Part shown: one piece after another, positions 3,411 through 62,064 of the stretch | How positions within the stretch are numbered: position 1 is the first letter of the stretch | How the letters are laid out: every line of letters begins with the position of its first letter | Source: a virus | Lineage: Duplodnaviria > Heunggongvirae > Uroviricota > Caudoviricetes | Length of the DNA: 64,000 nucleotides | Reading direction: 5' to 3' (one strand) | IMG/VR virus record: IMGVR_UViG_3300037487_000968 | Coordinates: 13,280 to 77,279 of that record | Translations under genes and position numbers: made by a program | The notes under the pieces: generated by a model | What the model was told of the DNA's origin: nothing | The model's database searches: none | The model's input: only the letters and a program-made list of their open reading frames with translations

Positions 3411-6400
3411 TTATGCTTGTACTCTTGCGTATTTTAGGATATCTTTATTAACTGATACTAAGTTATTTGTACTTAGTAGAAGTTGCTCTAATAACGAACT
3501 TTGATAACCAAGTGCAGTATTTATGCCTGTGTCGGCACTTGTCTTCTCTATTCCGGCGCCGTTTGCTTGTATACTCTCTTTTGGTGTTGCTTGCTCACCT
3601 TTAGAACCCTCTGCTGTCGATACTTGAGACGGACTGTTAAGTTCGGATGCCTTTGGTGTATTTGGCGTGCTCACACCTGCAGTTGATGTTGGTGCCGGCA
3701 GAGATACTGATCCTATCTTAGCTAATGCGCCAAATGCTAATGCTTTTACTATATCAATACCATTAATGGTTTCTACAATAGATTTTAATGTATCTAGTCC
3801 TGTAAATGCGCCCAATGAACCCGACAATGTATCTAATCCCGTTGATAATGAAATAAATGCGTTAGCTGAAGATTCTAATCCCGGTGCAAGGACAGATAAT
3901 ACCGATGATAAAATTTGTATTCCACTACCGGCAATACCAGCGGCTAATCCAAATGCTAATAATGCCATAGCACTTATATCGGTTAGTGCTGTTATACCAA
4001 GCGCAACATCTGTTAAACTTTCTCCATCTAATTCACCTAGTGGAACTAAACCTGCTGCCAATTCTGCTATTCCCGGTGCCGCAATACCAGCTGTCACCCC
4101 AAATGCTAATAACGCTACAGCACTTATATCAGTTAATGCTTTTATTCCCGGTGCAATACTTAATAAACTACTAGCATCTAATTCACCTAGTGGAACTAAA
4201 CCTGCTGCCAATTCTGCTATTCCCGGTGCCGCAATACCAGCGGCTAATCCAAATGCTAATAATGCCATAGCACTTATATCAGTTAATGCTTTTATTCCCG
4301 GTGCAATACTTAATAAACTACTAGCATCTAATTCACCTAGTGGTACTAGACCTGCTGCCAATTCGATTATGCCAGGTGCGGCCGTACCAGCTGCCAATCC
4401 AAATGCTAATAGTTTTATAGCATTTATATTAGATAAAGCGTCAATACCGGGCACGACACCTAATAAACTCTCGCCATCTAGTTCACCAATTGGAACTAGA
4501 CCTGCTGCTAATTCTGCTATTCCAGGACCAGCAATACCAGCAGCTAATCCAAATGCTAATAATGCTATAGCACTTATATCAGCTAATGCTTCTATTCCAG
4601 GCGCGACACCTAATAAACTCTCGCCATCTAGTTCACCAATTGGGACTAAACCTTCTGCTAATATACTTATTCCAGGCCCAGCAATACCAGCAGCTAACCC
4701 AAATGCTAATAGTTTCATAGCATTTATATTAGACAACGAATTTATGCCAACTGAATTAACTATTAATGCAATACCGTTTAATTTACTAAGTGGTACAAGA
4801 CCTGCTGCTAATTCTGCTATTCCAGGACCAGCAATACCAGCAGCTAATCCAAACGCCATCAGCTTTATGGCATTTATATTAGACAACGAATCTATACCTA
4901 TTGCATTAATTATTAATGCAACACCGTCTACTTTACTAAGTGGTACTAATCCTGTTGCTAATTCGATTATACCAGGTGCTGAAATACTAGCGGCTAACCC
5001 GAATGCCATTAACCGTATGGCATTTATATTAGATAATAAATTTATACCAATGGCATTAAGTATCAATGCAACACCATCTATTTTACCAAGTGGTACTAGA
5101 CCTGCTGCGAGTAATTTTATTCCTTCGCCTGCTTTATCACCTACATATCCTAACCCTAGTAATCCAATTACGCTCACACTTGAAAGTTCATTTATACCCA
5201 TTGCAACTGTGAATAAATTAAATCCATCTATTTCGTTGAGTATAGCAAGACCTTCTGCTAATGCTTTTATACCGGGTGCAGCAACTAATGCCGAAAGGCC
5301 AAATGCCATTAATTTAATTTTGCCGGCAGCGGTTAATGCATCTATACCTTTTGCAAGACTAGCTAGATTTGCACCTTTTAATGGCTCTAATAATGCGAGA
5401 CCTTCTGCTAATAGTTTTATACCCGGTCCTGCAACTAGTGCTGCTATACCAAACGCTAATAACCCTGGAGCACCTATTAATAACCCAATAGATGCAAGGC
5501 CTGCTGCTGCACCTAATGCTATTAAACCTCCGGCAACTTTAAGCATATCAGTGAATCCAATGCCGGCAAAAGCTTGCATGCCTTCGCCTATTAATTTAAG
5601 GCCATATCCTACACCAATTATTCCGGGTGTGGCTATTAATGCTGCTGTACCTAAAGCTAATAATCCTGCTGATGCTATCAACATAAACGGTAATGCTATT
5701 GCAAGAGTGACAGCTAATGCAGCAATACCTGCGCCTACTCCTACTAATCCTACAAACCCTACAGTGGCAAGATTTGAAATTGCTTCGCTCATTATTTTAA
5801 ATGCAAGACTAACACCGAGTAATCCGGGTGTAGCTATTAATGCTGCTACACCTATTGCTATTAAACCTACTGACCCTGCTATTAAAAACGGAGTTGCTAA
5901 TGCTAATGCAATAGATAACCCTGTTAATCCTACTGCCATGCCTAATAAACCTGCAACACCTATTGCACTAAGTTTTTCAAGGCTCGATGATAACATCATT
6001 AAGCCCGGGCTGGCTATTAATGCAGCCACACCTAGTGCTGTTAATCCAACTGAACTTACTACCAATAACGGTGCTGCCAATCCTAGTGCAACACCAAACA
6101 TAGTTAATGATGCTGCCACACCTAATAAATCGTTTGCTTTAATGTCTGTGAGTGACTTTAATCCCCATGCTAACATTTTAATTGGTATAGCGGCAACTAA
6201 TGCTGCTGCACCAAAAACTATTAATCCAGGTGCTGCCATTATCAACAGAGGTGTTGCTAATATAAGAGCCGCAGCAAGGCTAGATATTCCTAAAGCAATA
6301 CCTGCTATTTGCAACCCACTAATTTCACTTAATCCTTTAAGACCTTGTGCTAATAAAGCTATTCCGGGACCTGCCACTAGTGATGCTGCGCCTAACGCTA

Positions 6401-8606
6401 ATAATCCTATTGATCCTATTATTAAAGCTGGTGCTGCAATTGATAGTCCTACACCGAGTCCTATAAGGGCTGCTGTAATACCTAATATCTGCATACCACT
6501 AACATTTTTTAAAGAATCTAATCCTTTACCTAACATTTCGAAACCCGAACCGATCGATTGTATGCCGGCACCCAATAGCCAAAGAGATGCACCCATTACT
6601 GCTAATGCAGCGGCACCTGCTAATATAGCAACAGTTCCTACGCCGGTGCTCATTATAGCACCTAATCCCATTACGGCTAATGTTAAGCCTACTATAGCCA
6701 CGCCTGCTTTTGCTAAATCTTCCCAACTTACTTTAGTAAATTCAGCGACTGCTTTTCCTGTAATCCATAGAGCGGCTGCAATACCCGCTAATGCAGACAC
6801 ACCTAATAAAACTTTTGGATTGCCTAATGCTTTTAATCCATCTGCTAATCCTATTAAAAATCCTTTAACACCTTTACCTAATCCTTTACCAATATCGCCA
6901 ATACCTTTGCCAATCTTACCCATTAGGTTACTGCCTTTACTACTCTTACCACCGGCGCGATCTGCTAAACTTTCAGTGACATGTGTTGTACCTTTCTTAC
7001 CTGCTCCACCAAATGCCTTAGCCTTCATTGCCGATGTAATAGCAGTTAATGCAGTACCGAATAAATCTAAACTCTTATATAACGCAATACCTATAACTCC
7101 GATACCTATCCAGGCAGTTAAATCGATGCCATCCGCGACACCGAATACTTTTAATACCGCTGATAGCCCGTCTGATAATTTATTGAATCCCCAAATAATA
7201 AATTCTAGTGGTGCTATTATAAGTTTCAAAACAGTAGTAAGTGCATTTAACATGGTAGCGGTTGGGCCAAATGCTCTTTGTAATAGAGATTTAAGATTTT
7301 CCCATGCTGTTGCAAGGTCTTTACTTGCCTTATTACTTGCCATTAATCGCTGTACTTCTTCTTCTTTAAGCGGTTTAATTGCATCTGCCTGCTGTGTTAA
7401 TCCTACAATAAAATCTAATGATGCCCCAGCGCCTTCAACACCGGCTTGCTTTAGCATATTTAATCGTTGCTTTTCTGCTTCAAGTTCGCCGCGATGTGCT
7501 TTTATATATTCTTTCATTTGTTGAGCTTGCATTTCTTCAGGCATGCCTTTCAGCCCTTCAGCAAAGGAAGCAAATGATTGGGCAAACCCACCCATACCTA
7601 CTTTCTGAAGATTCATAAATGTTTCATTCAGTGGTTTAATAGGGTCTGTCATTAATTTTAAGATCTGCTTTGCTATATTTTGATCTTTAAACGATGATAA
7701 GAAAGCACCAACTCCTTGCGCTGCTTTGCTGCCAATTTGCCCATTCAATAAGTTTGCCTCAGTGCTCTTCGAAATTGATTCTATGTTGGCCATAATAGCC
7801 GCCCGAGACATCCCAGTAGCCATTGTTAATCTAAAAATACCTGCGCCGAACTTTTGTAAGCCTTCTGATGTTTCGGCAGCAGTTTTAAGATTTACATCTG
7901 CTGAATTCTGCTGCACACTTAAATATGAACCTAATAGATCAGCAGATTCCTTACTTGAAAATCCAAATTGAGTTAAATTAGCACTTGCCATACCTACTGT
8001 CTTAGCAAATTTTCCAACACCGAAAGAATTTACAGAGGAACTATACTTCGCCATTGATGCTGCAAGTTCTGTGAATCTAACCCCCGTTTCTGCTGTAAGT
8101 TGGCGCAATGATTGAAAACCATCCTTGGCTCCAGCAAATCCACTTATAACATTAACACCAGCAGCAGTTAGCTCATCAAATGTTTTTACATTATCTTCAA
8201 AAGCCTGCTTAATTGCTAGGCCAGATTTAATTATAGCAGAATTAAGAAATATTTGACTGTCAAAGTTATCTTTTTCTGATCTCCAACGCTTCTTTTGTCT
8301 TTTAGATTCTTCATCTACTTCTCTATTACGTTTTTTACGTCTAGGATCTTCGGATTCCAAATCTTTAATTAATTTTTCAAGTTCGGTCCTTGCCTTCTTC
8401 ATATCCTCCGGCGTAAGACCGGTACCGCCTGCTGTGGCTGTTTTTAATAATTGAGCAAATGTTTTGGAGTGAATTCCGAGAGATTTTCTGAGAATGGCTT
8501 CTATTGACTCTGATGTCTTTTCAGTAGCCCACGGAGGAAGTTTCTCTAATTCATCAGAAATTGCACCTTCTGCAATGCCAGTAATATAAACAGAATTATC
8601 AGCCAT
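3411..8606 (-). CDS. Tail tape measure protein
   Basis: 1731 aa, helical N-terminus, long Ala/Gly/Leu/Ile-rich repetitive region, located next to tail chaperone-like genes. Confidence 0.85.
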   Translation of the reverse strand: MADNSVYITGIAEGAISDELEKLPPWATEKTSESIEAILRKSLGIHSKTFAQLLKTATAGGTGLTPEDMKKARTELEKLIKDLESEDPRRKKRNREVDEESKRQKKRWRSEKDNFDSQIFLNSAIIKSGLAIKQAFEDNVKTFDELTAAGVNVISGFAGAKDGFQSLRQLTAETGVRFTELAASMAKYSSSVNSFGVGKFAKTVGMASANLTQFGFSSKESADLLGSYLSVQQNSADVNLKTAAETSEGLQKFGAGIFRLTMATGMSRAAIMANIESISKSTEANLLNGQIGSKAAQGVGAFLSSFKDQNIAKQILKLMTDPIKPLNETFMNLQKVGMGGFAQSFASFAEGLKGMPEEMQAQQMKEYIKAHRGELEAEKQRLNMLKQAGVEGAGASLDFIVGLTQQADAIKPLKEEEVQRLMASNKASKDLATAWENLKSLLQRAFGPTATMLNALTTVLKLIIAPLEFIIWGFNKLSDGLSAVLKVFGVADGIDLTAWIGIGVIGIALYKSLDLFGTALTAITSAMKAKAFGGAGKKGTTHVTESLADRAGGKSSKGSNLMGKIGKGIGDIGKGLGKGVKGFLIGLADGLKALGNPKVLLGVSALAGIAAALWITGKAVAEFTKVSWEDLAKAGVAIVGLTLAVMGLGAIMSTGVGTVAILAGAAALAVMGASLWLLGAGIQSIGSGFEMLGKGLDSLKNVSGMQILGITAALIGLGVGLSIAAPALIIGSIGLLALGAASLVAGPGIALLAQGLKGLSEISGLQIAGIALGISSLAAALILATPLLIMAAPGLIVFGAAALVAAIPIKMLAWGLKSLTDIKANDLLGVAASLTMFGVALGLAAPLLVVSSVGLTALGVAALIASPGLMMLSSSLEKLSAIGVAGLLGMAVGLTGLSIALALATPFLIAGSVGLIAIGVAALIATPGLLGVSLAFKIMSEAISNLATVGFVGLVGVGAGIAALAVTLAIALPFMLIASAGLLALGTAALIATPGIIGVGYGLKLIGEGMQAFAGIGFTDMLKVAGGLIALGAAAGLASIGLLIGAPGLLAFGIAALVAGPGIKLLAEGLALLEPLKGANLASLAKGIDALTAAGKIKLMAFGLSALVAAPGIKALAEGLAILNEIDGFNLFTVAMGINELSSVSVIGLLGLGYVGDKAGEGIKLLAAGLVPLGKIDGVALILNAIGINLLSNINAIRLMAFGLAASISAPGIIELATGLVPLSKVDGVALIINAIGIDSLSNINAIKLMAFGLAAGIAGPGIAELAAGLVPLSKLNGIALIVNSVGINSLSNINAMKLLAFGLAAGIAGPGISILAEGLVPIGELDGESLLGVAPGIEALADISAIALLAFGLAAGIAGPGIAELAAGLVPIGELDGESLLGVVPGIDALSNINAIKLLAFGLAAGTAAPGIIELAAGLVPLGELDASSLLSIAPGIKALTDISAMALLAFGLAAGIAAPGIAELAAGLVPLGELDASSLLSIAPGIKALTDISAVALLAFGVTAGIAAPGIAELAAGLVPLGELDGESLTDVALGITALTDISAMALLAFGLAAGIAGSGIQILSSVLSVLAPGLESSANAFISLSTGLDTLSGSLGAFTGLDTLKSIVETINGIDIVKALAFGALAKIGSVSLPAPTSTAGVSTPNTPKASELNSPSQVSTAEGSKGEQATPKESIQANGAGIEKTSADTGINTALGYQSSLLEQLLLSTNNLVSVNKDILKYARVQA
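3911..5410 (-). repeat. About ten tandem 150-bp (50-aa) repeats inside the tape measure gene
   Basis: cct(g/t)(c/t)tgc recurs at 4051, 4201, 4351, 4501, 4651, 4801, 4951, 5101, 5251 and 5401; unit resembles LAAGLVPLGELDASSLLSIAPGIKALTDISAMALLAFGLAAGIAAPGIAE. Confidence 0.9.
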
Positions 8607-9769: not shown

Positions 9770-10345
9770 ATGCATAAGAAACCAGACACGCAAGAACTCA
9801 ATATCCCGAGAGATGATGTCGAGTGCTGGGAACGTTATCCTAAACATCGTTGGGTATATGATTTATCAAGACTTCTTGACGCTCAAAATATTAAATGGAG
9901 TCCGTACGAAACTGATTTATTAAAAGATAAAGAAGTAAATATGTTTCTTGATACCTATAATAATGTAGAGTACGAACCCGGCTATATCTATATCAATAGC
10001 CCTCACGGAATTCATGTGATTACAGAAGTTTATATCACAAAGGGTGAGATTAAGTTAGCAAGATATATAGACAAAGATACAAATATAGAAATTCAAGATA
10101 CTATCGGTAATATAGAATTGCGAATTAATGCATTTATATCTATGCATTTTTTAAAATTCACTGGCATCATTACTATAGAATCAATCGGCAACAATATAAT
10201 GTCGATTCGTTTGCGTCCCTATTCAGAATTCGGGCTTAATGTTAATCCAGACATTGTTAGATTAACAAAGAGAATCTATAAGAAAACTGATATAACAGTA
10301 AATGGTCTTACAGACCAAGTCCTTCACGAAACACTCGCTTCGTAA
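9770..10345 (+). CDS. Hypothetical protein, possibly a degenerate ATP-grasp-like fold
   Basis: 191 aa with AAGGA SD; N-terminal DDVECWERYPKHRWVYD motif and C-terminal GIITIESIGNNIMSIRLR. Confidence 0.55.
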   Translation: MHKKPDTQELNIPRDDVECWERYPKHRWVYDLSRLLDAQNIKWSPYETDLLKDKEVNMFLDTYNNVEYEPGYIYINSPHGIHVITEVYITKGEIKLARYIDKDTNIEIQDTIGNIELRINAFISMHFLKFTGIITIESIGNNIMSIRLRPYSEFGLNVNPDIVRLTKRIYKKTDITVNGLTDQVLHETLAS

Positions 10346-10970
10346 ACTCCGCTTCGTTTTTCGTTCGTACTGTTTACTTCGTGATTTAATAGTTATATAG
10401 ATTATTGACGGAGGAGTCAGACCAAGGGTATCCAAAACCTGGATACTGGAAGCCTTGACGGTTTCGCAGACTGTTATATCGGAAAATTTCATAGTGTTGG
10501 ATTGATTATGTCAACTATCGCTAATACATATTAGCGTTCCTGAAGGGGTCTAAGGCGTTTTAAAGGCCACACAGACTCAATGCATTGTTACCACTTATAA
10601 CCAATGATAACGCATTTGGGAGGGCATACCCGTTTCACGTGCCTCCCACAAACTTAAACTTGATCATCTTACTAAGAACGTGCATAGATCTCTCTGATGC
10701 TCTTTTCTTATGATCTTGCCACTGCACATTCAGTGGGCCTGGCTGTTGCGCTCCTCTCCGAACGACACGCCAGCGAAATATTAACTAGGCTCGCTAACCT
10801 TATAATGTGATATAGAAACTTTTTTTTGGATTGCTTGAGTAAGAATTGGGCTTGCTTGAATAAACCTATACGCTGTTGGTCATATATGTTCACAGGGTGC
10901 GTCAGTCCTGCTATCTTTGTAATTTTGCTTGAACAGTTTTTACTGTTACACTATTTTAGCTGTAACAATC
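10324..10970. ncRNA. Candidate large structured non-coding element (ncRNA or origin)
   Basis: About 650 bp without a credible ORF between convergent genes, with at least eight inverted repeats (e.g. GTATCCA/TGGATAC 10428-10446, CGCTAAT/ATTAGCG 10519-10536, GGGAGG.CA/TGCCTCCC 10618-10647, CCACTG/CAGTGG 10719-10736, TGTTACA/TGTAACA 10944-10967). Confidence 0.45.
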
Positions 10971-10995
10971 TTTTATCATACACAATCTTGATATA

Positions 10996-11565
10996 CTATG
11001 TTGTTTTGATTGAATTCAGTGAAAACGTCCGCATTTCCTCAATTCGGCGTAGCCAGCCTGCTATATACTTCGATTGAGTTGGTTTCCTTGTTACAATATC
11101 TTTATAAAATTGTGCTCGCTGATCACATATTTGATTGCACATAGAAACTGCATCTAAACCAGCAATTGATGCTAATGTTTGCTGACCGATGTGCCCGTCA
11201 TCTTCGGTGCCAGCAGCTCTCTGTATAAATTTGCTTGCCGTACCTACACCATGATTTACACACCCGTCAAACTGTAATAAAGCAACATGATTAGGAAGTT
11301 TATCACATGAGCCTGCTAGCCAGTATTCTTTATAATATATACTTTCCGCCATATCCCACGTCAGCCCAGCGATATCAATACTCTGATGAGAATTTTTTGC
11401 TATACCGTATTTTGTTTCTCCACCGGGATCAATAGGATCATTACTATATCCACATTTAGAAAGATTAGTGCCATCTCGAACACCAGGTGCTTCTAGATTC
11501 CATGACCCGCCCACTTCGTACAACATAAGACGATTTATTGCATTTTCGAATATTTTTGAATACAT
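10996..11565 (-). CDS. Glycoside hydrolase family 108 lysozyme with C-terminal peptidoglycan-binding domain (endolysin candidate)
   Basis: E-x-GG near N-terminus, DPGGETKYGI, FDGCVNHG, DGHIGQQT, KYIAGWLRR motifs. Confidence 0.9.
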   Translation of the reverse strand: MYSKIFENAINRLMLYEVGGSWNLEAPGVRDGTNLSKCGYSNDPIDPGGETKYGIAKNSHQSIDIAGLTWDMAESIYYKEYWLAGSCDKLPNHVALLQFDGCVNHGVGTASKFIQRAAGTEDDGHIGQQTLASIAGLDAVSMCNQICDQRAQFYKDIVTRKPTQSKYIAGWLRRIEEMRTFSLNSIKTT

Positions 11566-13888: not shown

Positions 13889-14504
13889 GTTCGAGTTTCT
13901 TTGCAAGTTTTAGGGCCTTTAATTCTTTAGCTTCTAAATTGGCACGTTCTTTGCGAATATATTCAAATTCAAATTCTGCGGCCGTATCACCTAATATACC
14001 GTTAAAATCCGGAACTTCAAATATCCACCAATCTACATTTCTAATTTTTTTGGCGCCACGTTTAGGTGATCCGTCTAAATTAAAAGGTATTTCTATATTG
14101 CTTGATTTAGGAATATCTTTATATGCTGCATGTGGTATCAAGAAATAATAAAATTTATTCTGTATTCTTTCATATGCTACTACCCGTAATAATCCGATCT
14201 TACTATGAATGCGATGTATCGGGGCACCATATGATTTACCTAAACCCGATATACGAACTGATGTTGATTTTGCATCTGACCCATCTGGAAAATCCATTTT
14301 CTCCGTATTAATACGTTTTATACCCTTCCTTATAGAAATTGCTTGTTCTAATAGTGTACCGGGTGATATAAGTTCGTTTTCTATAACAAGTCTCTCTCGT
14401 ATGAATGTATAAATTTCTGATTCTTCTGTTAAGTTAGGAAAAATCATCGGAAATAATAAATCAAAAAATGCATGAGTTAATGCAGGGTCTTTATCTTTAG
14501 CCAT
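13794..14504 (-). CDS. Hypothetical protein, possible PD-(D/E)XK-type nuclease
   Basis: ATG at 14504 with AAGGA SD; LLE...DFPDGSDAKS acidic/Lys motif; Lys/Glu-rich helical tail overlapping the resolvase 3' end. Confidence 0.55.
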   Translation of the reverse strand: MAKDKDPALTHAFFDLLFPMIFPNLTEESEIYTFIRERLVIENELISPGTLLEQAISIRKGIKRINTEKMDFPDGSDAKSTSVRISGLGKSYGAPIHRIHSKIGLLRVVAYERIQNKFYYFLIPHAAYKDIPKSSNIEIPFNLDGSPKRGAKKIRNVDWWIFEVPDFNGILGDTAAEFEFEYIRKERANLEAKELKALKLAKKLELKELKAWKFSKKLERLSQKSIVVSQDQCLSV

Positions 14505-14532
14505 CTTATCCTTTGTAATTGTCAAGAAGTTC

Positions 14533-14562
14533 AGTGTATGCTCGATATTCTTAGAAAAGCAA
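14533..14562 (-). promoter_or_regulatory. Sigma70-type promoter candidate TTGCTT-N18-TACACT
   Basis: Located in the gap between the gp46 stop and the 14504 ORF. Confidence 0.45.
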
Positions 14563-14570
14563 CGATCTTC

Positions 14571-16346
14571 TTATATAATTTGCGTATCACTGCTCTCTAT
14601 GCTAGTGAAACCACCTTCTTTCACTACTTTTAACACGCTCGATACACGGCCAACTAATTCATCCCTGTGAGAGATTAGATAAATGTTTCTTTTACTTTCT
14701 CTTCCCATTTTCTTAAGAATTGCTAGTGAAGCTTCAACACCACTTGTATCTAAACCGCCATCTATAAGTTCATCGATGAAAAGTAAATTTACTTTTGAAT
14801 TCATATTCTCAAATACATCTCTAAACGACCAGCTTAACGAAAGTATTAATCTAGTTCTTTCACCGCGACTTAGATTATCGAAGTCAAATTCTTTACCATA
14901 CATTGTTATCTCAACTTCAAGATCTGATTTGAATTTAACAGAATGTGGAAGACCGATATCCGCCAGATAATGTGCTAAACGATGATTTAAGAATGCTAAA
15001 TTCTGATCGATAATTTTCTTACGAATAAAAGAATCTTTATTGGTTAGTAGTTTCATTAAAAATTCTTGATGATCCCGTAATTTCACAAGATTATTTAATT
15101 TTGTGAAATCTATTTCTTGTAATCCATCTCGCTTTAATGATTCGATTTGATCTACATAAGGGTTAATTGCTTCTAATTCCGATGATAGATTATTACCTAA
15201 TGTATCAAGGGTTGTCTTATGTCTGTATGCTTCATCAACCGTATCATAAAATGTCTCAGGCAGCTTAGGTATAAGAGAGGACACACTGCTCGCGAGTGCG
15301 CTTACTTCGTCGCGTTTTGCTGCTTTTTCGCGTAATTTAGCGTGAGCATCTTTGTGTTGTGCCTCGTACTCCGCATGAACCTTAGTATGCGTCTCTTTGT
15401 CCATTTCCCCGTTACACGTTGGACAGATTTTTTCAACTGAACTTGCTAAAACTTTATCTAATCTTGTAATTGTTCTAGTTGAATCATTAACATCTTTTTC
15501 TAAACCGCCCAACTCCTTTGTGAGAGATCTATACTCAGCAGTTAAATCTTCTACTTCTTTCTTAGATTTATGAAGGGCAATTTCGCTATCAATATCAACC
15601 TTAAGATATTCCATTATAGTTGATTGAATTTTATCTATCTTTTGTGTTTTTGCGCCATCCCACGCCGAAGATTTGGCTTCCAGCGTTGTAATATTTGTTT
15701 CAATTCTCTTATTCGCTTCGGTAGCTGCCGTGATCCGAAATTCCTCTTCTTTAATTTCATCTTTTGTTATCCGTGCCTCTTCTTTAAGCTTATCTGCTTT
15801 TTCAGAGAGTTTGGTAATACCGAGTAGCTGTTCGATGATAATTCTTTGTTCATTTGTTTTTAATGCTAAGAAAGGCTCGACATATGTATTCAACGCAAGT
15901 ATATGTTTGAACATATCGTGAGATATGCCTATAATACGTTCAATCTCTACTTGTGTATGACGGCCTTCACCTTGTGATTCGTCTTCACCGGATGTATCTT
16001 CTTCGACATCATCCTTAATAAACTTAAAGATACCTGGCCTACGCCCGCGCTCAATCTTATAATTTACTCCATTCATTTCGAATGTGAGAGTAACCAACAT
16101 ATTTTTCATATTGGTTTTATTGATTAAATTATCTTTCTTGATATTAGTTAAGGCAGAACCGTATAAGGCATAACTCAACGCATTAACAATGGTAGATTTA
16201 CCTACACCGTTTCTATTGTCATTACCACCCAAATCTAAATTCTCACCAAGAACAAGCACTAATTCATCAGTGCTAAAATTAAGAGATTGGGTAACATTAC
16301 CTATACTCATGAAGTTCTTTATTGTTAAACCTTGTAGTTTTAGCAT
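14571..16346 (-). CDS. gp46: Recombination endonuclease ATPase subunit (SbcC/Rad50, T4 gp46-like)
   Basis: KNFMSIG, Walker A NGVGKST, zinc hook CPTC, signature LSRGE, Walker B LFIDE..D.GLD, H-loop ISH. Confidence 0.95.
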   Translation of the reverse strand: MLKLQGLTIKNFMSIGNVTQSLNFSTDELVLVLGENLDLGGNDNRNGVGKSTIVNALSYALYGSALTNIKKDNLINKTNMKNMLVTLTFEMNGVNYKIERGRRPGIFKFIKDDVEEDTSGEDESQGEGRHTQVEIERIIGISHDMFKHILALNTYVEPFLALKTNEQRIIIEQLLGITKLSEKADKLKEEARITKDEIKEEEFRITAATEANKRIETNITTLEAKSSAWDGAKTQKIDKIQSTIMEYLKVDIDSEIALHKSKKEVEDLTAEYRSLTKELGGLEKDVNDSTRTITRLDKVLASSVEKICPTCNGEMDKETHTKVHAEYEAQHKDAHAKLREKAAKRDEVSALASSVSSLIPKLPETFYDTVDEAYRHKTTLDTLGNNLSSELEAINPYVDQIESLKRDGLQEIDFTKLNNLVKLRDHQEFLMKLLTNKDSFIRKKIIDQNLAFLNHRLAHYLADIGLPHSVKFKSDLEVEITMYGKEFDFDNLSRGERTRLILSLSWSFRDVFENMNSKVNLLFIDELIDGGLDTSGVEASLAILKKMGRESKRNIYLISHRDELVGRVSSVLKVVKEGGFTSIESSDTQII

Positions 16347-47222: not shown

Positions 47223-48124
47223 CACGCGGTGTATTAATGTTCGCACATAATAATACTGAGATTGATTATCTCAAAATTGCCTGTGCGAATGCGTTAATGG
47301 TGAAGAAAAATCTAAATGTACCTGTTACTTTAGTAACAGATATAGACACATTAAAATGGGGAAGAACATCTCTCGGTAAAGAATTACTGGATAGTTGTTT
47401 TGAAAAAGTCCGTGTAGTTCCTAGAGATTATAAATTTAATAATAGTAGAAACTTCTCAGACACTGCATTTAACACCAAACCTCTACAATTCTACAATTGC
47501 AATCATTGGACCGCATATAGATTTTCACCATACGATGAAACACTATTCATAGATTGTGATTATTTAATAATGAGTTCTGCGCTTAGTAATTGTTGGGGAA
47601 GTAATTATGATGTAATGATTAATAGTAATATCTATACACCACTTAATGAAACTAATCCATTCTCTAAGAAAGTAGACGAATTAGGTATTACACTATATTG
47701 GGCAACTGTGATTTATTTTAAGAAATCGTCTTTAGCAGAGCATATGTTTTCTTTAGTTAAACACATTCAGAGCAATTACGGGTATTACAGAGATCTATAC
47801 GGATTCTCTAGTGGAATGTTTAGAAATGACAATGCATTCAGCATAGCAGTCCATACATTAAATGGATTCAATACAGAAGAGCCGAGTATTCAACAATTAC
47901 CTATACCGGGATTATTAATGTCCTGGGATACAGATGATATTCAAGATGTCAATGGGATAAACGATATCACTCTTTATTCAGAAAAGACAGGTAAAACAGG
48001 TGAATATATTCTAACTAGATTAAAGGGTATGGATGTTCATATTATGAATAAATGGGCAATTAATCGCCATGCTGATAAATTAATTAATCTCTATAAGGAT
48101 GATACATGTCACGCGGATATTTAA
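47219..48124 (+). CDS. GT-A fold nucleotide-sugar glycosyltransferase
   Basis: RGVLMFA start, SPYDETLFIDCD (DxD), WATVIYFKK, FRNDNAFSIA. Confidence 0.75.
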   Translation: MTRGVLMFAHNNTEIDYLKIACANALMVKKNLNVPVTLVTDIDTLKWGRTSLGKELLDSCFEKVRVVPRDYKFNNSRNFSDTAFNTKPLQFYNCNHWTAYRFSPYDETLFIDCDYLIMSSALSNCWGSNYDVMINSNIYTPLNETNPFSKKVDELGITLYWATVIYFKKSSLAEHMFSLVKHIQSNYGYYRDLYGFSSGMFRNDNAFSIAVHTLNGFNTEEPSIQQLPIPGLLMSWDTDDIQDVNGINDITLYSEKTGKTGEYILTRLKGMDVHIMNKWAINRHADKLINLYKDDTCHADI

Positions 48125-48957
48125 TTTTAGCACAAGATACAAAGAAACATGATTATACAAAACTTGCGTATGCGCTGGCGTTAAGTATAAAAAATTCTCA
48201 AGGTATGGTAAACAAGGTAGCATTGGCCACAACATCAGACAATATACCCGATAAGTATCATGAAGTTTTTGATGCTGTGATAGATGTACCTTGGACAGAT
48301 CAAGCAGAATATTCTAAATGGAAAATCGAGAATAAATGGAAGTATTATTATATGACTCCGTTTGACGAAACCATTATATTAGATGCTGATATGTTATTCC
48401 CAACAGATATTAGCCATTGGTGGGATATCTTATCGCAGAAAGATATATGGATCACGGATAAACCCAGGACCTATAGAGGAGAAATAATAACCTCAACAGA
48501 ATATAGACCGACCTTTGTTGCAAACAATTTGCCCAATGTTTATACAGCATTTATGTATTTTAAGAAGAGCCAAATTGCAGCAGAATTATTTAAAATGGTA
48601 GAAATAATTTTCGAAAATTGGGAAAGATTCTTCTACAACTATTTAGACGAAACTCGACCTAAGCACCTATCGGGTGATGTTGCCTATGCTTTAGCAATCA
48701 AATTATTAGGCATCGAAAACGAGTGTTTTGGTAATTCTTCGTTTGTACCATCGTTTGTACATATGAAATCGTTATTACAAGATGTAGATGAAAAATATAT
48801 AACCGAAGATTGGACAGAACACTTCCCTACACACTTTGCAGACAATGGGACTTTTAAGATTGGTAACTACGAACAAACATTGCCCTTTCATTATCAAATT
48901 AAATCTTGGTTAAAAGATGATATGATTACAACTCTAGAAAAAAGGCTCGATATATGA
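48106..48957 (+). CDS. GT-A fold nucleotide-sugar glycosyltransferase, paralog of upstream gene
   Basis: RGYLILA start, TPFDETIILDAD (DxD), AFMYFKK, FVHMK. Confidence 0.75.
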   Translation: MSRGYLILAQDTKKHDYTKLAYALALSIKNSQGMVNKVALATTSDNIPDKYHEVFDAVIDVPWTDQAEYSKWKIENKWKYYYMTPFDETIILDADMLFPTDISHWWDILSQKDIWITDKPRTYRGEIITSTEYRPTFVANNLPNVYTAFMYFKKSQIAAELFKMVEIIFENWERFFYNYLDETRPKHLSGDVAYALAIKLLGIENECFGNSSFVPSFVHMKSLLQDVDEKYITEDWTEHFPTHFADNGTFKIGNYEQTLPFHYQIKSWLKDDMITTLEKRLDI

Positions 48958-49562
48958 AACCTTTAATATTAATGTATGTCTTCTATGATAAGAATGGAGA
49001 TATTAAAGCAATCACACCTGTATTAAATGATACCTATGCGGCTGACTTTTCTGTGGCAACTTTTCCACTGTCCGAAGTAGAAATGTTTTTAACCGCACAG
49101 AAAAACACGTTCGATTATCAGGTAAAGGTAGTTGAAAAAATAACAGGTATAACCTATTCCCTTGTTAAGAAGCAATTAAATATTAATTATACAAGAACAT
49201 TAAATACATATCTTACCAAAGTCGATGAAGTATTACCTAATGGTAATTCCGTTATTATTACTAACGATACAGTTAGGGGCGGTGTATTTATTGAAGTGAA
49301 CAAGGCATTAAAAGAAGTGCATAAGCAGATAGCATCTTCCGAAGAGCAAGAAGATGTTGTTAATAATTTCTTCAATAGTGGTCCATCAATTGTGTACCTT
49401 ACTAAAGAAAATAATCCTTATCATTTATTATTTTCGTTTTCATTCTTGCCGAAAACATTATTCAGTGTAGATAAATTGTATTTTCCTTATAAAGGGTCAT
49501 ATACTAATACAAGTGCCTATACGAAAAAAATAATAGTCGGGTACGGATTTAAAGAAAAATAA
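48954..49562 (+). CDS. Hypothetical protein
   Basis: 202-aa ORF translationally coupled to the upstream gene; no recognised motif. Confidence 0.65.
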   Translation: MKPLILMYVFYDKNGDIKAITPVLNDTYAADFSVATFPLSEVEMFLTAQKNTFDYQVKVVEKITGITYSLVKKQLNINYTRTLNTYLTKVDEVLPNGNSVIITNDTVRGGVFIEVNKALKEVHKQIASSEEQEDVVNNFFNSGPSIVYLTKENNPYHLLFSFSFLPKTLFSVDKLYFPYKGSYTNTSAYTKKIIVGYGFKEK

Positions 49563-49578
49563 CATAGGAATAAACCAA

Positions 49579-50583
49579 ATGGCATTTACACCAATGAGCG
49601 AATTATCAGTTATTTTTATCAGTTATGATGAAGATAATTGCGAAGAAAATTGGGCTGATTTACAGAACAAGGTGCCCTGGGCGCAACGTGTCCACGGTGT
49701 AAAAGGATCTGATGCAGCACATAAGGCTGCTGCAAATTTATCAGATACAAGTAGATTCATTTCAGTTGATGCCGATAATATTGTTGATCCTAATTTTTTC
49801 GATATGGAATTAGATTATGATCATCCTAAATTATCAGGTAAGGCAGTCAGCTGGGCAGCAAAAAATTATGTAAATGGTTTAGAATATGGCAACGGTGGCC
49901 TAAAATGCTGGCCTAAACAATATGTTTTAGATATGCGTACTCACGAAAATTCCGATAGTACTGATGAAAGAAATCAGGTAGATTTCTGTTGGGAAGATAG
50001 TTATGTACAGATGGCAAATCAGTACAGCACTACCTACCCAAATGGTAGTCCACGGCAGGCCTTCCGCGCAGGATTCAGAGAAGGTGTTAAGATGAGTTTA
50101 GATCAAGGTGGTAAAGTGCATCCAGATAATTTCAAGAAAACCATCTGGTGGGGAAATTATAAACGTCTTATCACATGGTGCAGTATTGGTGCCGATGTAG
50201 AAAACGGCTTATGGTCTATGTACGGTACTCGTTTAGGTTGTCAAATGACTAATCTAACAGATTGGAATTATGTAAATGTTAGAGACTTTGATTATCTAAA
50301 CAATCTATTTACAAACGAAATAATGCCTAAATTCGAAACAAAGGCAGATGTAACTACCGCGGAAAAATGCTATAAGACTGGCTATGTCTGGGATACACAT
50401 AAATTACAGAATTCAATTAACGAGTTAGGTGTTGATTTAAGAAAATGTCTTGGATTAGAACTTGCTGAATTAGACAAAATCGGTAGCAAATTCTATAAGG
50501 CAGCTCAATATAACACTCCTCGAATGAATAAAATGTTCACAGAAGAAGAGTTATACGAACTTCGAAGAATTAATAGCAAATGA
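49579..50583 (+). CDS. Glycosyltransferase-like protein (GT-A, DxD)
   Basis: VIFISYDE, VHGVKGSDAAHKAAA, ISVDADN, YGNGGLKCW, AFRAGFREGVKM. Confidence 0.65.
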   Translation: MAFTPMSELSVIFISYDEDNCEENWADLQNKVPWAQRVHGVKGSDAAHKAAANLSDTSRFISVDADNIVDPNFFDMELDYDHPKLSGKAVSWAAKNYVNGLEYGNGGLKCWPKQYVLDMRTHENSDSTDERNQVDFCWEDSYVQMANQYSTTYPNGSPRQAFRAGFREGVKMSLDQGGKVHPDNFKKTIWWGNYKRLITWCSIGADVENGLWSMYGTRLGCQMTNLTDWNYVNVRDFDYLNNLFTNEIMPKFETKADVTTAEKCYKTGYVWDTHKLQNSINELGVDLRKCLGLELAELDKIGSKFYKAAQYNTPRMNKMFTEEELYELRRINSK

Positions 50584-51176
50584 TAGATTCTTCGTTTATT
50601 ATTAAATACACAAATGCATTATATTCTACTCCTGCAGAGTTTGCACCCAGATATGACGAATTTCGTGATATGTTTAGTTCGGGTCAGGTTCTTAGTAAAG
50701 AATGGATTGTAGAACAACTCTACAATATAGATCATACATATTATAATAAAAAATTAATCATAGTTGGTGCTTGGTATGGCACACTAGGTATGATGCTTAA
50801 GAAAAAGTTTCCTAGTACAAAGGTAACAATGCTAGATATAGATCCTCGTTGTGAGAAATTTATTCATAATATGATCTATGATAATCCAGATTTAAAAAGC
50901 ATAACCGCAGATATGTATAGACATTCTTATGTCGAAGATGTTATAATAAATACAAGCTGCGAACATATCAACAATGTTCGAGAATGGTTATCTTTAATTC
51001 CTAAGGGTCGAATAGTTGTTTTACAATCAAACAATTATCTTAAAGGCAATGGGCATGTCAATTGTGTTAATAGCACAGAAGAATTTATAGAACAGGTAGA
51101 TTTATCGGATGTCTTATATACAGGCGAGTTAATAATGCCGATGTATACAAGATATATGATAATAGGTAAAACATAG
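50580..51176 (+). CDS. Class I SAM-dependent methyltransferase-like protein
   Basis: IIVGAWYG glycine loop, LDIDP acidic motif, INTSCEH, VLQSNN. Confidence 0.7.
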   Translation: MIDSSFIIKYTNALYSTPAEFAPRYDEFRDMFSSGQVLSKEWIVEQLYNIDHTYYNKKLIIVGAWYGTLGMMLKKKFPSTKVTMLDIDPRCEKFIHNMIYDNPDLKSITADMYRHSYVEDVIINTSCEHINNVREWLSLIPKGRIVVLQSNNYLKGNGHVNCVNSTEEFIEQVDLSDVLYTGELIMPMYTRYMIIGKT

Positions 51177-51185
51177 AGGGTATTT

Positions 51186-52595
51186 ATGAATGCAGATAAT
51201 GAACAATCTCGTATAGAGTTTATTAAGAAACGAGTTGATAAAGAGATTGGACCGACCTTTTGTTTGGCTAAATGGCACCATGTAACTATGTATCTGCAAT
51301 CAGGAGAAACACATAGTTGTTATCATCCTAAACCACATAAGATACCACTCGGCGAAATTGCTATTAACCCATCGGCTTTGCACAATACAGAAGAGAAAAA
51401 GCAAGAACGAAAGTTAATGTTAGAAGGTGGTAAACCTGTTGGATGTACCTATTGTTGGAATATAGAGGATATGGGTCCCGATTATGTAAGTGACAGACAT
51501 ATTCGTAATGCTTCTATCTTTAACGAAGAGAGACTTAAGGAGTGTGCAACCGGATCGTGGGATCAGAATATTAATCCACAGTATATAGAAATCAACTTTG
51601 GAAACGAATGCAATTTCAAATGCGGTTACTGCCATCCTAAATATTCAACACGCTTCTATAACGAGATTAAAGAGTTTGGCCCTGTTACGACTGTCTCGAA
51701 TCATCGTTGCGATATTGATTGGATGAGATTATATCAACGCGAAGACGAAAATCCTTATGTAGATGCATTCTGGAAGTGGTGGCCGGAACTTCGTAAGACA
51801 TTGACTATTATGCGTGTGACCGGTGGGGAACCATTATTACACCGAAGCACATGGCAGTTATTTGATAAATTAGAAGAAGACCCTTTACCACATTTAGAAT
51901 TAAATATAAACAGTAATCTAGGTGCTAAACATGCCTTGGTGAAAAAGCTGACAGAGAAGGTAACAAGTCTGCTAAAAGGTAATAAAATAAAAAGCTTTAA
52001 ATTATTTACTAGTTTGGATACTTGGGGACCGCGTGCTGAATATATTCGTACCGGTTTAGATTTAGTACTATGGGAAAGAAACTTTTATGAATACCTAAAT
52101 CAGACTAATAGTCCTATTACATTCATGATTACCTTTAATTTATTATCAGTAACAACCTTTAAATCTTTCTTAGCAAAAATATTAGAATGGCGCAAACAAT
52201 ATAAATCAAACGGCATGCCCGGTGAACAACAGCACCGTATTAGATTTGATACACCGTATCTACGTGATCCATTGCAGTATGACATGAACATATTACCTAA
52301 AAAAGACTTTATGCCATTTATGCTCGAATCGTTGAAGTTTATGGAAGATAATGTCGATAATGAAGATACTGATAAATTTACCAGTATAGAATATGAAAAA
52401 TTTAAAAGAGTTGTAAATTATATGGATACAACAATATACTCTGATGAAAAATTAATCACAGGGCGCCGAGATTTCTATAACTGGTTTTCGGCCTTAGACG
52501 CTCGACGCGAAACAAAGATATTATCAGTATTTCCGGAGATGAGCGATTTTTATCAATTGTGCGAAGAGATAAATCGCTCACACCCCAAGCTATGA
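51186..52595 (+). CDS. Radical SAM enzyme 1 with N-terminal Cys/His-rich auxiliary domain
   Basis: CNFKCGYC, TGGEPL, INSN; N-terminal CLAKW...HSCYHP...CTYC. Confidence 0.9.
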   Translation: MNADNEQSRIEFIKKRVDKEIGPTFCLAKWHHVTMYLQSGETHSCYHPKPHKIPLGEIAINPSALHNTEEKKQERKLMLEGGKPVGCTYCWNIEDMGPDYVSDRHIRNASIFNEERLKECATGSWDQNINPQYIEINFGNECNFKCGYCHPKYSTRFYNEIKEFGPVTTVSNHRCDIDWMRLYQREDENPYVDAFWKWWPELRKTLTIMRVTGGEPLLHRSTWQLFDKLEEDPLPHLELNINSNLGAKHALVKKLTEKVTSLLKGNKIKSFKLFTSLDTWGPRAEYIRTGLDLVLWERNFYEYLNQTNSPITFMITFNLLSVTTFKSFLAKILEWRKQYKSNGMPGEQQHRIRFDTPYLRDPLQYDMNILPKKDFMPFMLESLKFMEDNVDNEDTDKFTSIEYEKFKRVVNYMDTTIYSDEKLITGRRDFYNWFSALDARRETKILSVFPEMSDFYQLCEEINRSHPKL

Positions 52596-53791
52596 CAATC
52601 GATCATAATATAGTTTGTCTCATGCCATGGATGCATATGCATGTATGGCCTAACGGCGATACCTTTCCTTGCTGCATGAGTGATTCTAGCATTGTATTTG
52701 GTAATGTTCATAGAGAAAATATCAACGAATTAATTAATAATAATAATTATAAGACACTAAGAAAACAAATGATACAGGGAGAAAAACCTGCGGCCTGTTC
52801 ACGATGTTACGAATTGGAAACTTCAGCCAATAGTTGGACACTAAGAAAGAATAGCCTATCTAGTTTTAAAGATTATTTACCTCTTATAGGGGAGACCAAC
52901 AAAGACGGTAGTATAGATAACTTTAAAATGAGATATATGGATATTCGCTTCAGTAATTTATGTAATATGAAATGTAGAACCTGCGGGCCCGATTTAAGTA
53001 GTACATGGCATGAAGATCAAGTAGTTATGTATCCGGAATATTCGTCTCCTAAGTTCATAGATTTAAAAACCAATCCCACTTTTATGGAGCAATTAATACC
53101 TCATCTGAATACAATAGAGGAGGTATATTTTGCCGGTGGTGAGGCATTAATAACACCACAACATTATGAAATATTAGATTATTGGTTGGCCAAAGGCAAA
53201 ACTGATGTGAAATTGCGTTATACAACAAACTTTAGTGGGCTAAAATATAAGAATAAATCTATTTTAGATTATTGGAAAAAATTTAAAGATGTAAGAGTTG
53301 CAGCAAGCTTAGATACATATGGCGTTCGTGCAGAGTATGCTAGAAAAGGTACAAATTGGGATAAAATTATTCAAAATCGAAGTATAATGATTGAAAGTTG
53401 TCCCGATGTTTATTTTGAAATTACACCTACAGTAAGTATTTTTAGTGTTCATAGTCTATTTAATTTTCACAAAGAATGGGTAGAAAAAGGTCTTCTAAAT
53501 ATAAACAATATTAGAATTAATATTTTAACTCATCCTCGGTATTTCTCTATTACTATATTACCCGAAGAATATAAAGAAGAGATATGTAATTTATACAAGA
53601 AGTACGAAGAATGGCTAATAAATAATGGTGCACAGAAACATATAATAAATGCTATTCGTGGTATAGTAAGTTACATGAATAGTGAGAATCATACAGAATT
53701 ATTAGAACAATTCAAAACAGAAATCAACAGAATCGACAATATTAGAAATGAAAATTTTAAAGATATATACCCGGAGTTAAAAAATTTATGA
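52592..53791 (+). CDS. Radical SAM enzyme 2 with N-terminal SPASM/twitch-like domain
   Basis: CNMKCRTC, FAGGE, YTTN; N-terminal CLMPW...PCC...CSRC; ATG 52592 overlaps the upstream stop. Confidence 0.9.
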   Translation: MTIDHNIVCLMPWMHMHVWPNGDTFPCCMSDSSIVFGNVHRENINELINNNNYKTLRKQMIQGEKPAACSRCYELETSANSWTLRKNSLSSFKDYLPLIGETNKDGSIDNFKMRYMDIRFSNLCNMKCRTCGPDLSSTWHEDQVVMYPEYSSPKFIDLKTNPTFMEQLIPHLNTIEEVYFAGGEALITPQHYEILDYWLAKGKTDVKLRYTTNFSGLKYKNKSILDYWKKFKDVRVAASLDTYGVRAEYARKGTNWDKIIQNRSIMIESCPDVYFEITPTVSIFSVHSLFNFHKEWVEKGLLNINNIRINILTHPRYFSITILPEEYKEEICNLYKKYEEWLINNGAQKHIINAIRGIVSYMNSENHTELLEQFKTEINRIDNIRNENFKDIYPELKNL

Positions 53792-55146
53792 GTACTACAG
53801 TACCTGAAGATATTCCTCAAGAAAAAAGAATAGAATGGTTATCTAAGAATTTAGATAAATTTTGTGTGTTACCGTGGCTTAATTTAAATACAAACACAGA
53901 TGGTAACATAAAGCTATGTTGTAATATTCAGTTAGAACATTTAGTAGCAGATGCTGATACCGGCACATATAACCTAGGTAAACACGATATAGAGACAATA
54001 TGGAATAGTGTCTATATGAAATATACGCGCAAAATGCACCGTCGTAATTTCGGTTCTACCGAATGCAAAGAATGCTATAAGGCAGAGAAAGTGTCCGGGC
54101 ATAGTCCACGGGTAGGGCAGAATGCATTATGGATAGAAAGACAGGACCATGACGAACAGCTCAAAAACCATCTTGTTGATGTTTCGCAAGAGGAGCCGAT
54201 GGTTAATCCGGTACAGTTACCTACTAGCCTAGAACTTAGATTAGGTAATCAATGTAATCTAAGATGTATAACATGCTGGGGCATGAGTAGTTCTTTAATA
54301 CATGAAGAAAGATCGGCATATCTAAAGAATAATTTATTAGATGACCCAAAACTAATATGGCTAAAGTCGAGGTGGAAAAACGAAATAGAAACTGTTGAGA
54401 AGACAGAAGTTAGTGAATGGTTTGATACTGACATATTCTATAATAATTTCAGAAAAATGGCGCCTACTCTTAGACGTCTATACACAACCGGCGGCGAACC
54501 TACAGTAATTAAAGCAAATTATAAGATGTTACAAATGTTGCTAGATGCAGGAAATACTGACTGTAGAATAGAATTTACAAGTAATATGACTAACTGGAAT
54601 CCATTATTCTACAGTAATTTATCTAAATTTAAGAATGTCGAAATACAAATGAGTATAGATGGCGTAGATGAAATTGGGGAATATATCAGATACCCGAGTG
54701 ACTTCTCTAAAGTAAGAGAAAATATTGATAAGGTAGTAAAAATAGCATCAAGAAATCCTAATTGGAGTATTAAATGCTATACCGTATTGCAGGCACTAAA
54801 TTATAAACATCTTACACCCATATGGGATTTATTAAATAACATAGGATTTAAGTACTGTAAGAGTATAGACTGGTGGCCAATAACATTAGTTGCGCCAGCG
54901 TTTTTATCATTAGGCGCTGTACCGTTAGAAACACGCACTGAATATATGCCAGAATTGCAGAAGGCTTTTGATTTATTCAAAGAGTTAGGAGACGGTCGTT
55001 TATATCTAGCAGATGATACAATTAGTGCATGTAAAGAATCTATGTTAAATGTATCATATCAGCCCATACTAGAATCTAATCTTGCAACTTTTATAGAATT
55101 TACAGATAAACAACGAGCAGTAACTAATAAATTAGGAAAAATATGA
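53788..55146 (+). CDS. Radical SAM enzyme 3 with N-terminal SPASM/twitch-like domain
   Basis: CNLRCITC, TGGEPT, SIDG; N-terminal CVLPW...LCC...CKEC. Confidence 0.9.
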   Translation: MSTTVPEDIPQEKRIEWLSKNLDKFCVLPWLNLNTNTDGNIKLCCNIQLEHLVADADTGTYNLGKHDIETIWNSVYMKYTRKMHRRNFGSTECKECYKAEKVSGHSPRVGQNALWIERQDHDEQLKNHLVDVSQEEPMVNPVQLPTSLELRLGNQCNLRCITCWGMSSSLIHEERSAYLKNNLLDDPKLIWLKSRWKNEIETVEKTEVSEWFDTDIFYNNFRKMAPTLRRLYTTGGEPTVIKANYKMLQMLLDAGNTDCRIEFTSNMTNWNPLFYSNLSKFKNVEIQMSIDGVDEIGEYIRYPSDFSKVRENIDKVVKIASRNPNWSIKCYTVLQALNYKHLTPIWDLLNNIGFKYCKSIDWWPITLVAPAFLSLGAVPLETRTEYMPELQKAFDLFKELGDGRLYLADDTISACKESMLNVSYQPILESNLATFIEFTDKQRAVTNKLGKI

Positions 55147-56126
55147 TAGACGACACATTGATAGAAATTAAACCTAAGAGTAGGCCGTACGTTAGTATAA
55201 CCTGGCAGGTCAGCGATTTCTGTAATTATAAATGTAAATACTGTAACCCTGGTAATTGGGCCGGCAATAATGCTAAGAACAGGAATGAGTCAGAATATGA
55301 ACAGGTACTCTATAACTTAAATTATCTCCTTGGCCATTATGAAACTCGCGGGTATAATGCATTTAAGTTTTATTTTAGCGGAGGCGAACCAACAGTATGG
55401 CCACATCTGCTTCCGCTCATTACCTGGTTAAAAGGGAGACTTGATGATCCGCAAATAGGTATCAATACAAATCTTAGTACATCTACGGCTTGGTGGAAAA
55501 AGAACCATCATTTATTTCACGATGTTGTTGCAAGTTATCATATTGATTTTGCCAATACAGAGAGATACATAAATAATCTTATTTTCTTACAGGATAAAGT
55601 TAATTATCTATGCAGCAGAATGATGATGCAAGAGGATAAATTTGATGAAATAATATTATTCGGTGAAAGAGTAAAATCTACATTGCAAAATTATAATATA
55701 GAATGGGTACCGTTATTCGACGAAATTAGTGTCGATACCGGGCCGTGGAAATATAAAGAACAGCGTATGTATGATTTCTTTGAGACTCACAGTTTTGATA
55801 CTCAGACATTATTAAAGAAACCTGCAAGTAGTCGATGGGCTTGCGCCAGTAATGAAATATATGATTCGGGTAGAATAATTCCGTTGAACGGGAATAGATT
55901 AGTAGCGGAACGTAGGAACTTTTTCGAAGGTTGGCAATGTAATGTTGATGAAAGTTTATTTATTAATAGTGCAGGTAATATCACTGCTGCTAGTTGCGGC
56001 CAAGGTCCCGCACTAGGTAATATATATGATACCGTTAATGCTATGTCGCAACCTATTATATGTAAGAAAACGCAATGTACGTGTGGTACAGATATTCTTA
56101 TAACTAAATCTCGCAAAAATGGCTGA
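55143..56126 (+). CDS. Radical SAM enzyme 4 with C-terminal Cys-rich domain
   Basis: CNYKCKYC, SGGEPT, INTN; C-terminal WQC...ASC...ICKKTQCTC. Confidence 0.9.
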   Translation: MIDDTLIEIKPKSRPYVSITWQVSDFCNYKCKYCNPGNWAGNNAKNRNESEYEQVLYNLNYLLGHYETRGYNAFKFYFSGGEPTVWPHLLPLITWLKGRLDDPQIGINTNLSTSTAWWKKNHHLFHDVVASYHIDFANTERYINNLIFLQDKVNYLCSRMMMQEDKFDEIILFGERVKSTLQNYNIEWVPLFDEISVDTGPWKYKEQRMYDFFETHSFDTQTLLKKPASSRWACASNEIYDSGRIIPLNGNRLVAERRNFFEGWQCNVDESLFINSAGNITAASCGQGPALGNIYDTVNAMSQPIICKKTQCTCGTDILITKSRKNG

Positions 56127-57372: not shown

Positions 57373-57374
57373 AT

Positions 57375-62056: not shown

Positions 62057-62064
62057 GAATTATA

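Follow-up and report, generated by a model that had tools for sequence, protein, structure and literature searches.

What does a long gene-free interval do in the genome of a tailed phage? The window (the whole stretch of 64,000 nucleotides that was analysed) belongs to a virus record of 210,450 bp, 55% complete, and carries at 10346-10995 a gene-free gap of 650 bp, the longest non-coding gap of the window, as the preliminary description had stated. It lies between convergent genes, a 191-aa ORF on the plus strand and a PHROG endolysin on the minus strand, in a neighbourhood that includes a baseplate hub, this 191-aa unknown ORF, the endolysin, a resolvase and gp46/gp47. The closest cultured matches of the hub are PA5oct-like phages (43%), followed by GAP32-, Asteriusvirus- and RaK2-like jumbo phages, and the window phage is, as judged from sequence, a PA5oct/GAP32-like jumbo myovirus of fresh water. 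The 191-aa ORF (window 9770-10345) has no PHROG match. A 76-aa small ORF within the gap also has none, and the frames of the small gap ORFs are broken by indels among homologs.

Homologous loci were collected with three queries (the flanking ORF, a DNA pattern, the hub), which gave 12, 24 and 79 loci (the 79 from the best 80 of 524 hub matches), and alignments were made of 16 full-length units and of 26 3' halves, with duplicates and truncated copies left out. Folding energy and covariation among homologous gaps had both been proposed earlier as checks on a structured RNA. The former is unconvincing by itself and marginally better than that of shuffled sequences only (z -1.2 to -1.6): for the gap, z is -1.62 on the plus and -1.42 on the minus strand, with 4 and 7 of 100 shuffles equally good, and for the core at 10405-10830 it is -1.2 on the minus and -1.5 on the plus strand (60 shuffles). 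Covariation is strong. Two-sided changes were found by RNAalifold at 41 of 101 pairs in the 16 sequences, and in the 3' half 18 of the 32 tested pairs, pseudoknot included, change on both sides in the 26 homologs, a value that none of 500 shuffles reached in a control that ignores relatedness. The hand-set structure of the 3' half is paired in 97.5% of 809 cells (26 sequences), and pairing falls to 31-41% when the partners are slid. The pseudoknot joins the loop at 10594-10602 with 10472-10479. The strand, which had been left undetermined, can now be given as minus, since G.U combinations outnumber A.C (40 against 9 cells). The gap thus holds a conserved, pseudoknotted structured element of about 540 nt, which is most likely a non-coding RNA. 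Its parts, read on the minus strand, are as follows.

10944..10967, minus strand: inverted repeat with a conserved -10-like hexamer TAAAAT (10953-10958), a possible promoter, or a terminator or processing hairpin of the endolysin operon.
10405..10946, minus strand: whole structured unit of about 540 nt, from alignments and covariation, with the 5' end inferred and the 3' end set at box 2.
10845..10916, minus strand: dispensable 5' module, a hairpin (10892-10911) and a GGUUU/AAACC-type stem with an A-U/G-C swap in 7 of 16 sequences; its pattern is matched in 22 of 24 loci and absent from L024 and L042.
10773..10799, minus strand: P1 hairpin, resembling the first Polynucleobacter-1 hairpin by eye (unscored).
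10739..10773, minus strand: stem with an apical hairpin (10749-10764) that we take to be T-loop-like; G-C to U-A swap in 4 of 16.
10662..10738, minus strand: hairpin 10718-10738 and branched stem 10662-10715, with a variable insert; most pairs show two-sided changes.
10618..10647, minus strand: hairpin with a conserved GUGAAA loop, presumably T-loop-like; two-sided changes per pair in up to 10 of 16.
10579..10616, minus strand: long hairpin; its loop (10594-10602) supplies the pseudoknot's 5' strand; helices 1-3 of the 3'-half structure.
10480..10542, minus strand: closing stem 10535-42/10480-86 around a small hairpin and the stem 10491-10518, which bears the most conserved loop; helices 5-8, of which helix 5 is paired in 100% of cells and covaries at 4 of 4 pairs.
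10472..10479, minus strand: 3' strand of the pseudoknot; 3 of 5 pairs with two-sided changes, in 8, 8 and 7 of 26 sequences.
10455..10461, minus strand: box 1 (X1), from the box alignment.
10428..10446, minus strand: last hairpin, between the boxes, of widely variable length, from the alignments.
10405..10411, minus strand: box 2 (X2), identical to box 1 and 50 nt downstream of it, from the box alignment.
10304..10383, minus strand: CGNAG-repeat tail, an imperfect DNA hairpin (10325-10383) and a small hairpin (10304-10316), overlapping the end of the convergent 191-aa ORF.

The preliminary description had seen in the gap a large structured non-coding RNA, possibly of the ROOL or GOLLD kind. 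The structured element itself stands, now with strand, pseudoknot and bounds, and the eight local stems on which it was based are exact inverted repeats at the positions given for them (for the GGGAGG.CA/TGCCTCCC stem the 6-bp core was checked and is exact); the CAAGG/CCTTG stem is kept in 21-25 of 26 sequences per position, with compensatory change absent. The long-range pairing of 10409-10416 with 10751-10760 had to be dropped: the complement is inexact, three of its positions fail to pair in 8, 5 and 7 of the 16 homologs with zero compensatory change, and the partner bases sit within a covarying local hairpin. Membership of ROOL or GOLLD was likewise given up. GOLLD (RF02032) and ROOL are large, ornate and phage-borne like the element, but Rfam gave nothing for the window at E<=10 and nothing for 7 clade loci, there is no tRNA in the window, and high abundance is not indicated. 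The earlier failure to assign the gap to tmRNA, RNase P or an intron agrees with the lack of any Rfam or ARAGORN match (HEARO and OLE included). A BLAST search of cultured phages with the window gap gave no match.

A possible relative, partly catalogued, was found at the syntenic site of more distant phages (hub 30-47% identical), which carry there, on the same strand, an element of 350-600 nt; the Rfam model Polynucleobacter-1 (RF01718) matches its first third in 5 of 17 loci tested. A 16-mer from the core of this distant family occurs at no fewer than 120 viral loci (about 1200 stretches are estimated), and 107 of 136 loci with the 16-mer pass the family pattern filter. A minimal GIY-YIG gene lies upstream of the distant element, in the same orientation, at 46 of 57 loci. 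In the distant family, loops that we take to be of the GNRA type alternate with UUCG-type loops. The same 16-nt core loop is shared by L150, L154, L157, L170 and L184 and by L155, L180 and L198, in which the twin-box pattern described below is absent; these are perhaps further subfamilies.

The full-length members of Polynucleobacter-1 resemble the window unit in locus and in helix order (topology matched by eye), the shared order of the 3' half being a long hairpin with pseudoknot loop, closing stem, conserved CAA loop, pseudoknot strand, box, hairpin and box. The published model differs in that it spans 141 nt and carries no functional assignment. The window unit, for its part, is longer, with an additional module at the 5' end and no GIY-YIG neighbour. 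According to the part of Weinberg et al. (2010) available to us, some members already show a 3' extension in the alignment (PMC2864571). The Polynucleobacter-1 model (>37 bits) finds no match in the window, in its record (E<=10) or in 7 clade loci. Covariance model R1 reaches other syntenic elements at E 6e-34 to 0.44 and finds none in the window clade, PA5oct or GAP32; no profile link was obtained between the clades, as models built on either side fail to reach the other. The kinship of the window unit with Polynucleobacter-1 therefore rests on synteny and helix order, and the unit is not filed here as a member; from sequence it appears to be a divergent variant of a partly catalogued kind. 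A description of the element was not found in the literature searched, and in the portions of the sources covered Polynucleobacter-1 is named in PMC2864571 only.

The feature most informative about function is the pair of short boxes at the 3' end. In the distant family, two 7-nt boxes lie 48-60 nt apart on either side of the last hairpin and are identical to each other in 80 of 80 non-redundant loci, with 7 variants (shuffled mean 13.9, maximum 26); this count covers loci that fit a pattern with 4 of the 7 letters fixed, so that the test concerns three positions. On a FastTree tree computed with the box columns excluded, the box changed at least 32 times. Among 74 aligned sequences, the sole column covarying with each variable box base is that of the corresponding base in the other box, and no column complementary to the box bases was found. 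The window clade has a shared core of 4-5 nt, in which four positions match in 26 of 26 sequences, rare variants included; the fifth base matches in 22 of 26 against 10.6 expected, three of the four mismatches being transitions, and the base 5' of the core matches in 10 against 8.3 expected and is thus not concerted. In L086 the two boxes are two transitions apart, a difference that a third partner pairing by G.U wobble could explain as well. Matched boxes were also found in eight cultured phages, in two variant groups that represent about one independent change. If one box pairs with the strand complementary to the other, identity covariation without any partner column should result, and change by identity, rather than by complementarity, fits pairing of box 1 in the nascent RNA with the DNA template at box 2. 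The simplest partner to assume for the box is the template strand of the DNA. Covariation of this kind, between the same and not the complementary base, is overlooked by standard RNA screens.

Ribosome hopping was considered, as the boxes of the distant family often consist of a codon and a stop, and was rejected: the window boxes contain no stop, and all 7 bases are matched, not 3. In L118, of the distant family, an internal deletion has removed box 1, the pseudoknot strand and the last hairpin. In L028/L410 a third box copy lies just past box 2 and derives from a short tandem duplication.

Upstream of the unit, the hexamer TAAAAT or a variant of it was found in 21 clade loci at 433-694 nt from box 2 (two further rows of the tally are internal matches). 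In the window the -10-like hexamer lies 550 nt from box 2 and has no -35, and a scan for sigma-70 promoters gave none on the minus strand; in GAP32-like phages the 5' end of the element bears an extended -10 promoter. In one of four RNA runs, an RNA-library contig covers 10409-10759 and ends at box 2 (DNA carry-over is possible); its depth is 8.3 against 3-11 for coding contigs of the same run, and contigs cannot rank expression. The element is uncovered in the other three runs, which carries no weight against transcription. The PA5oct RNA-seq paper, in the part available, reports four ncRNAs, none at the locus of the element.

Beyond box 2, at least two CGNAG motifs occur on the element strand in 21 of 25 clade loci and on the other strand in none of the 25, against a background of 6%; records G000 and G001 have the tail in single copy. 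A first count of mini-hairpins was uninformative. Mini-hairpins of the GCGNAGC type are more stable in DNA and are present at phage priming sites, according to the part of the source seen (PMC13037366). The conservation of the final codons of the 191-aa ORF is due to their overlap with the CGNAG tail, which lies on the opposite strand.

A second copy of the element was found in three of four complete clade genomes, in the same orientation and 47% of the map away; the three represent one shared gene order and not three independent cases.

G001:12920-13152 (L237): second, diverged copy, beside a phoH-like gene.
G003:123374-123598 (L415): second, diverged copy.
G004:139226-139450 (L414): second, diverged copy.

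The second copies differ in their 5' half, have no clear CGNAG tail and lie far from recombination genes. In two of the three genomes (G003 and G004) the paralogous copies differ from each other at the fifth base of the box and each is self-matched, which argues against a shared protein as the cause of box identity; in the third genome with two copies the box matches extend over 4 nt. The record of the window lacks the region expected to hold a second copy, and no second box-to-box unit was found in it. In G001 (L243), an RNA-binding protein (phrog_850, 10100-11506) and an RNA ligase (phrog_968, 14386-15462) are close together.

On its anatomy, the element looks more like an RNA that acts in cis, linked to its own DNA, than like a free structural RNA. 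On balance, our analysis favours, with some reserve, the interpretation that the element is an R-loop primer and origin comparable to RNA II of ColE1. RNA polymerase would transcribe the unit, the folded body of which would position box 1; while the polymerase moves across box 2, the transcript would pair through box 1 with the template DNA strand there and nucleate a lasting RNA-DNA hybrid. The displaced strand would then expose the tail as single-stranded DNA hairpins for the loading of helicase or primase, and the 3' end of the RNA, produced by a cut of host RNase H or by termination, would prime leading-strand synthesis by a T4-like replisome of the phage. A complete relative encodes a polymerase, a DnaB-like helicase, SSB, a clamp loader and UvsX (126 of 218 selected ORFs scanned, of 409 in all), and no phage RNase HI domain was found in 5 records.

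As far as the sources were available, an rG stretch of the RNA of ColE1 must pair with a dC stretch of the template DNA (PMC4412123), the primer begins 550 bp upstream, and helicase is loaded on the displaced strand (PMC5043065; PMC3167613). The element resembles RNA II in its size, about 550 nt of folded RNA, and would share with it a stretch that pairs with the template and a single-strand signal downstream on the displaced strand. In ColE1 this signal is the n'-pas/ssiA primosome site. The two differ in that the G runs of ColE1 are about 245 nt apart, whereas the element has boxes of 5-7 nt of mixed sequence 50 nt apart, and in that the element belongs to a phage with its own replisome. No homology to ColE1 was found by nhmmer, by pairwise ranking of 122 ColE1 windows (in which AT-rich windows won) or by the covariance models R1 and R2, and the tail gave no profile match to ColE1. 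A post-hoc motif chain, chosen with ColE1 in view, built on two T-loop-like motifs of the distant family and missing the window's own element, has its best score inside RNA II (24 bits), a value reached by 3 of 300 shuffles and none of 57 phage chunks. A GC-skew switch is absent at the element. The R-loop origins oriF and oriG of T4 are, as proposed here for the element, transcription-primed and belong to a T4-like phage; they consist of a promoter and an unwinding element, and a large knotted RNA or twin boxes are not mentioned in the part of the source seen (PMC4412123).

The same hybrid of box 1 and template could serve another purpose, such as ending transcription between the convergent operons or opening the DNA for recombination or packaging, which we rate as unlikely. 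Identity covariation shows a need for strand pairing and not its purpose, resolvase and gp46/47 adjoin the site in most clades, and the missing tail of the second copies and the missing skew switch would agree with such a role; a knotted body of 540 nt with a strand-specific CGNAG tail, however, exceeds the needs of a terminator, and the second copies are distant from the recombination genes. Size, ornate fold and pseudoknot would also suit a GOLLD/ROOL-like RNA that acts in trans, in a structural or regulatory role, with a single protein or partner RNA bound by both boxes, and a wobble partner would allow the box mismatches of the window clade, mostly transitions at the fifth base (3 of 4). 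Such an RNA is nevertheless a rather unlikely explanation, as the paralogs within one genome carry different boxes and a complementary partner column is absent, the sole RNA-library contig has coding-like depth, and none of the four ncRNAs in the part of the PA5oct RNA-seq study seen maps to the locus. That the fold is adopted not by RNA but by single-stranded DNA of the minus strand, as a structured DNA origin, is improbable. G.T wobble would fit this case too, the tail is DNA-like and weak evidence of transcription came from one of four RNA runs, but the alternation of GNRA- and UUCG-type loops in the distant family and the conserved T-loop-like motifs are RNA signatures, and GAP32-like phages place an extended -10 promoter at the 5' end.

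The frequent upstream position of the GIY-YIG gene on the same strand in the distant family suggests a partner or guide RNA for this minimal nuclease, a role that is very improbable for the element: the nuclease is not adjacent in the window clade, GAP32 or PA5oct, no homolog was found in the window's record (55% complete), and a variable guide segment was not seen. Template jumping guided by repeats, as in telomerase-like or DRT systems, also predicts identity covariation, and the element might accordingly be a template for repeat-adding reverse transcription, with the twin boxes guiding the jumps. We regard this as scarcely credible. No RVT_1 match, which a template RNA of a retron, DRT or DGR would call for, was found in the window's record or in five relatives that are 93-100% complete (0 of 6 records), so that cDNA is an unlikely partner of the box, and the window's record has no second box-to-box unit.

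A broader form of the R-loop primer interpretation is more tentative, and we see it as nearly balanced, leaning slightly to the negative: PA5oct/GAP32-like phages would start replication from knotted primer RNAs with a twin-box code of free sequence, in the window clade from two co-oriented origins that halve the genome, which would make these RNAs a counterpart of ColE1 RNA II and provide the first function for Polynucleobacter-1. No description of the replication start of PA5oct/GAP32-like jumbo phages was found in the literature searched. If true, the proposal would give a role to an RNA motif that was listed in 2010 with no function, and would carry structured-RNA priming over from plasmids to giant phages; the answer that the element offers on the replication start can be tested directly in cultured phages such as Sharanji on E. 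coli K-12.

The distribution of the element was examined in phages, plasmids and bacteria. BLAST searches of plasmids with the L090 and GAP32 elements, and of phages with the L150-type element, gave no match. Among 121 bacterial genome loci (15 of 64 parts searched), model R1, run on 79, gave no full-length match below E 0.09, and the pattern filter retained one family member, a 419-bp Flavobacteriales MAG locus without context. Of the five cultured phages first examined, three (RaK2, Atu_ph07 and Vibrio phage 2.275.O) have no such element at the corresponding site, and the gaps of GAP32 and PA5oct show, by eye, the same 3' layout. The GAP32 gap (L277) matches 71 cultured records, GAP32 itself among them. 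In GAP32- and Asteriusvirus-like phages there are mostly 4-5 matching places per genome, and in K64-1-like Klebsiella phages the match is a single short piece. At 75.9-77.2 kb of PA5oct (L274:5035-6300) and in several enterobacterial jumbo phages, tiny CDS annotated as 'hypothetical' overlap the element and may be spurious. Elsewhere in the window, 3411-8606 encodes a tape-measure-like protein of 1731 aa with a long repeat region, overlapped by an antisense ORF of 1285 aa, and the tail genes are followed at 48106-63242 by a long run of ORFs that resemble, as judged from their translations, glycosyltransferases, radical-SAM proteins and hydrolases.
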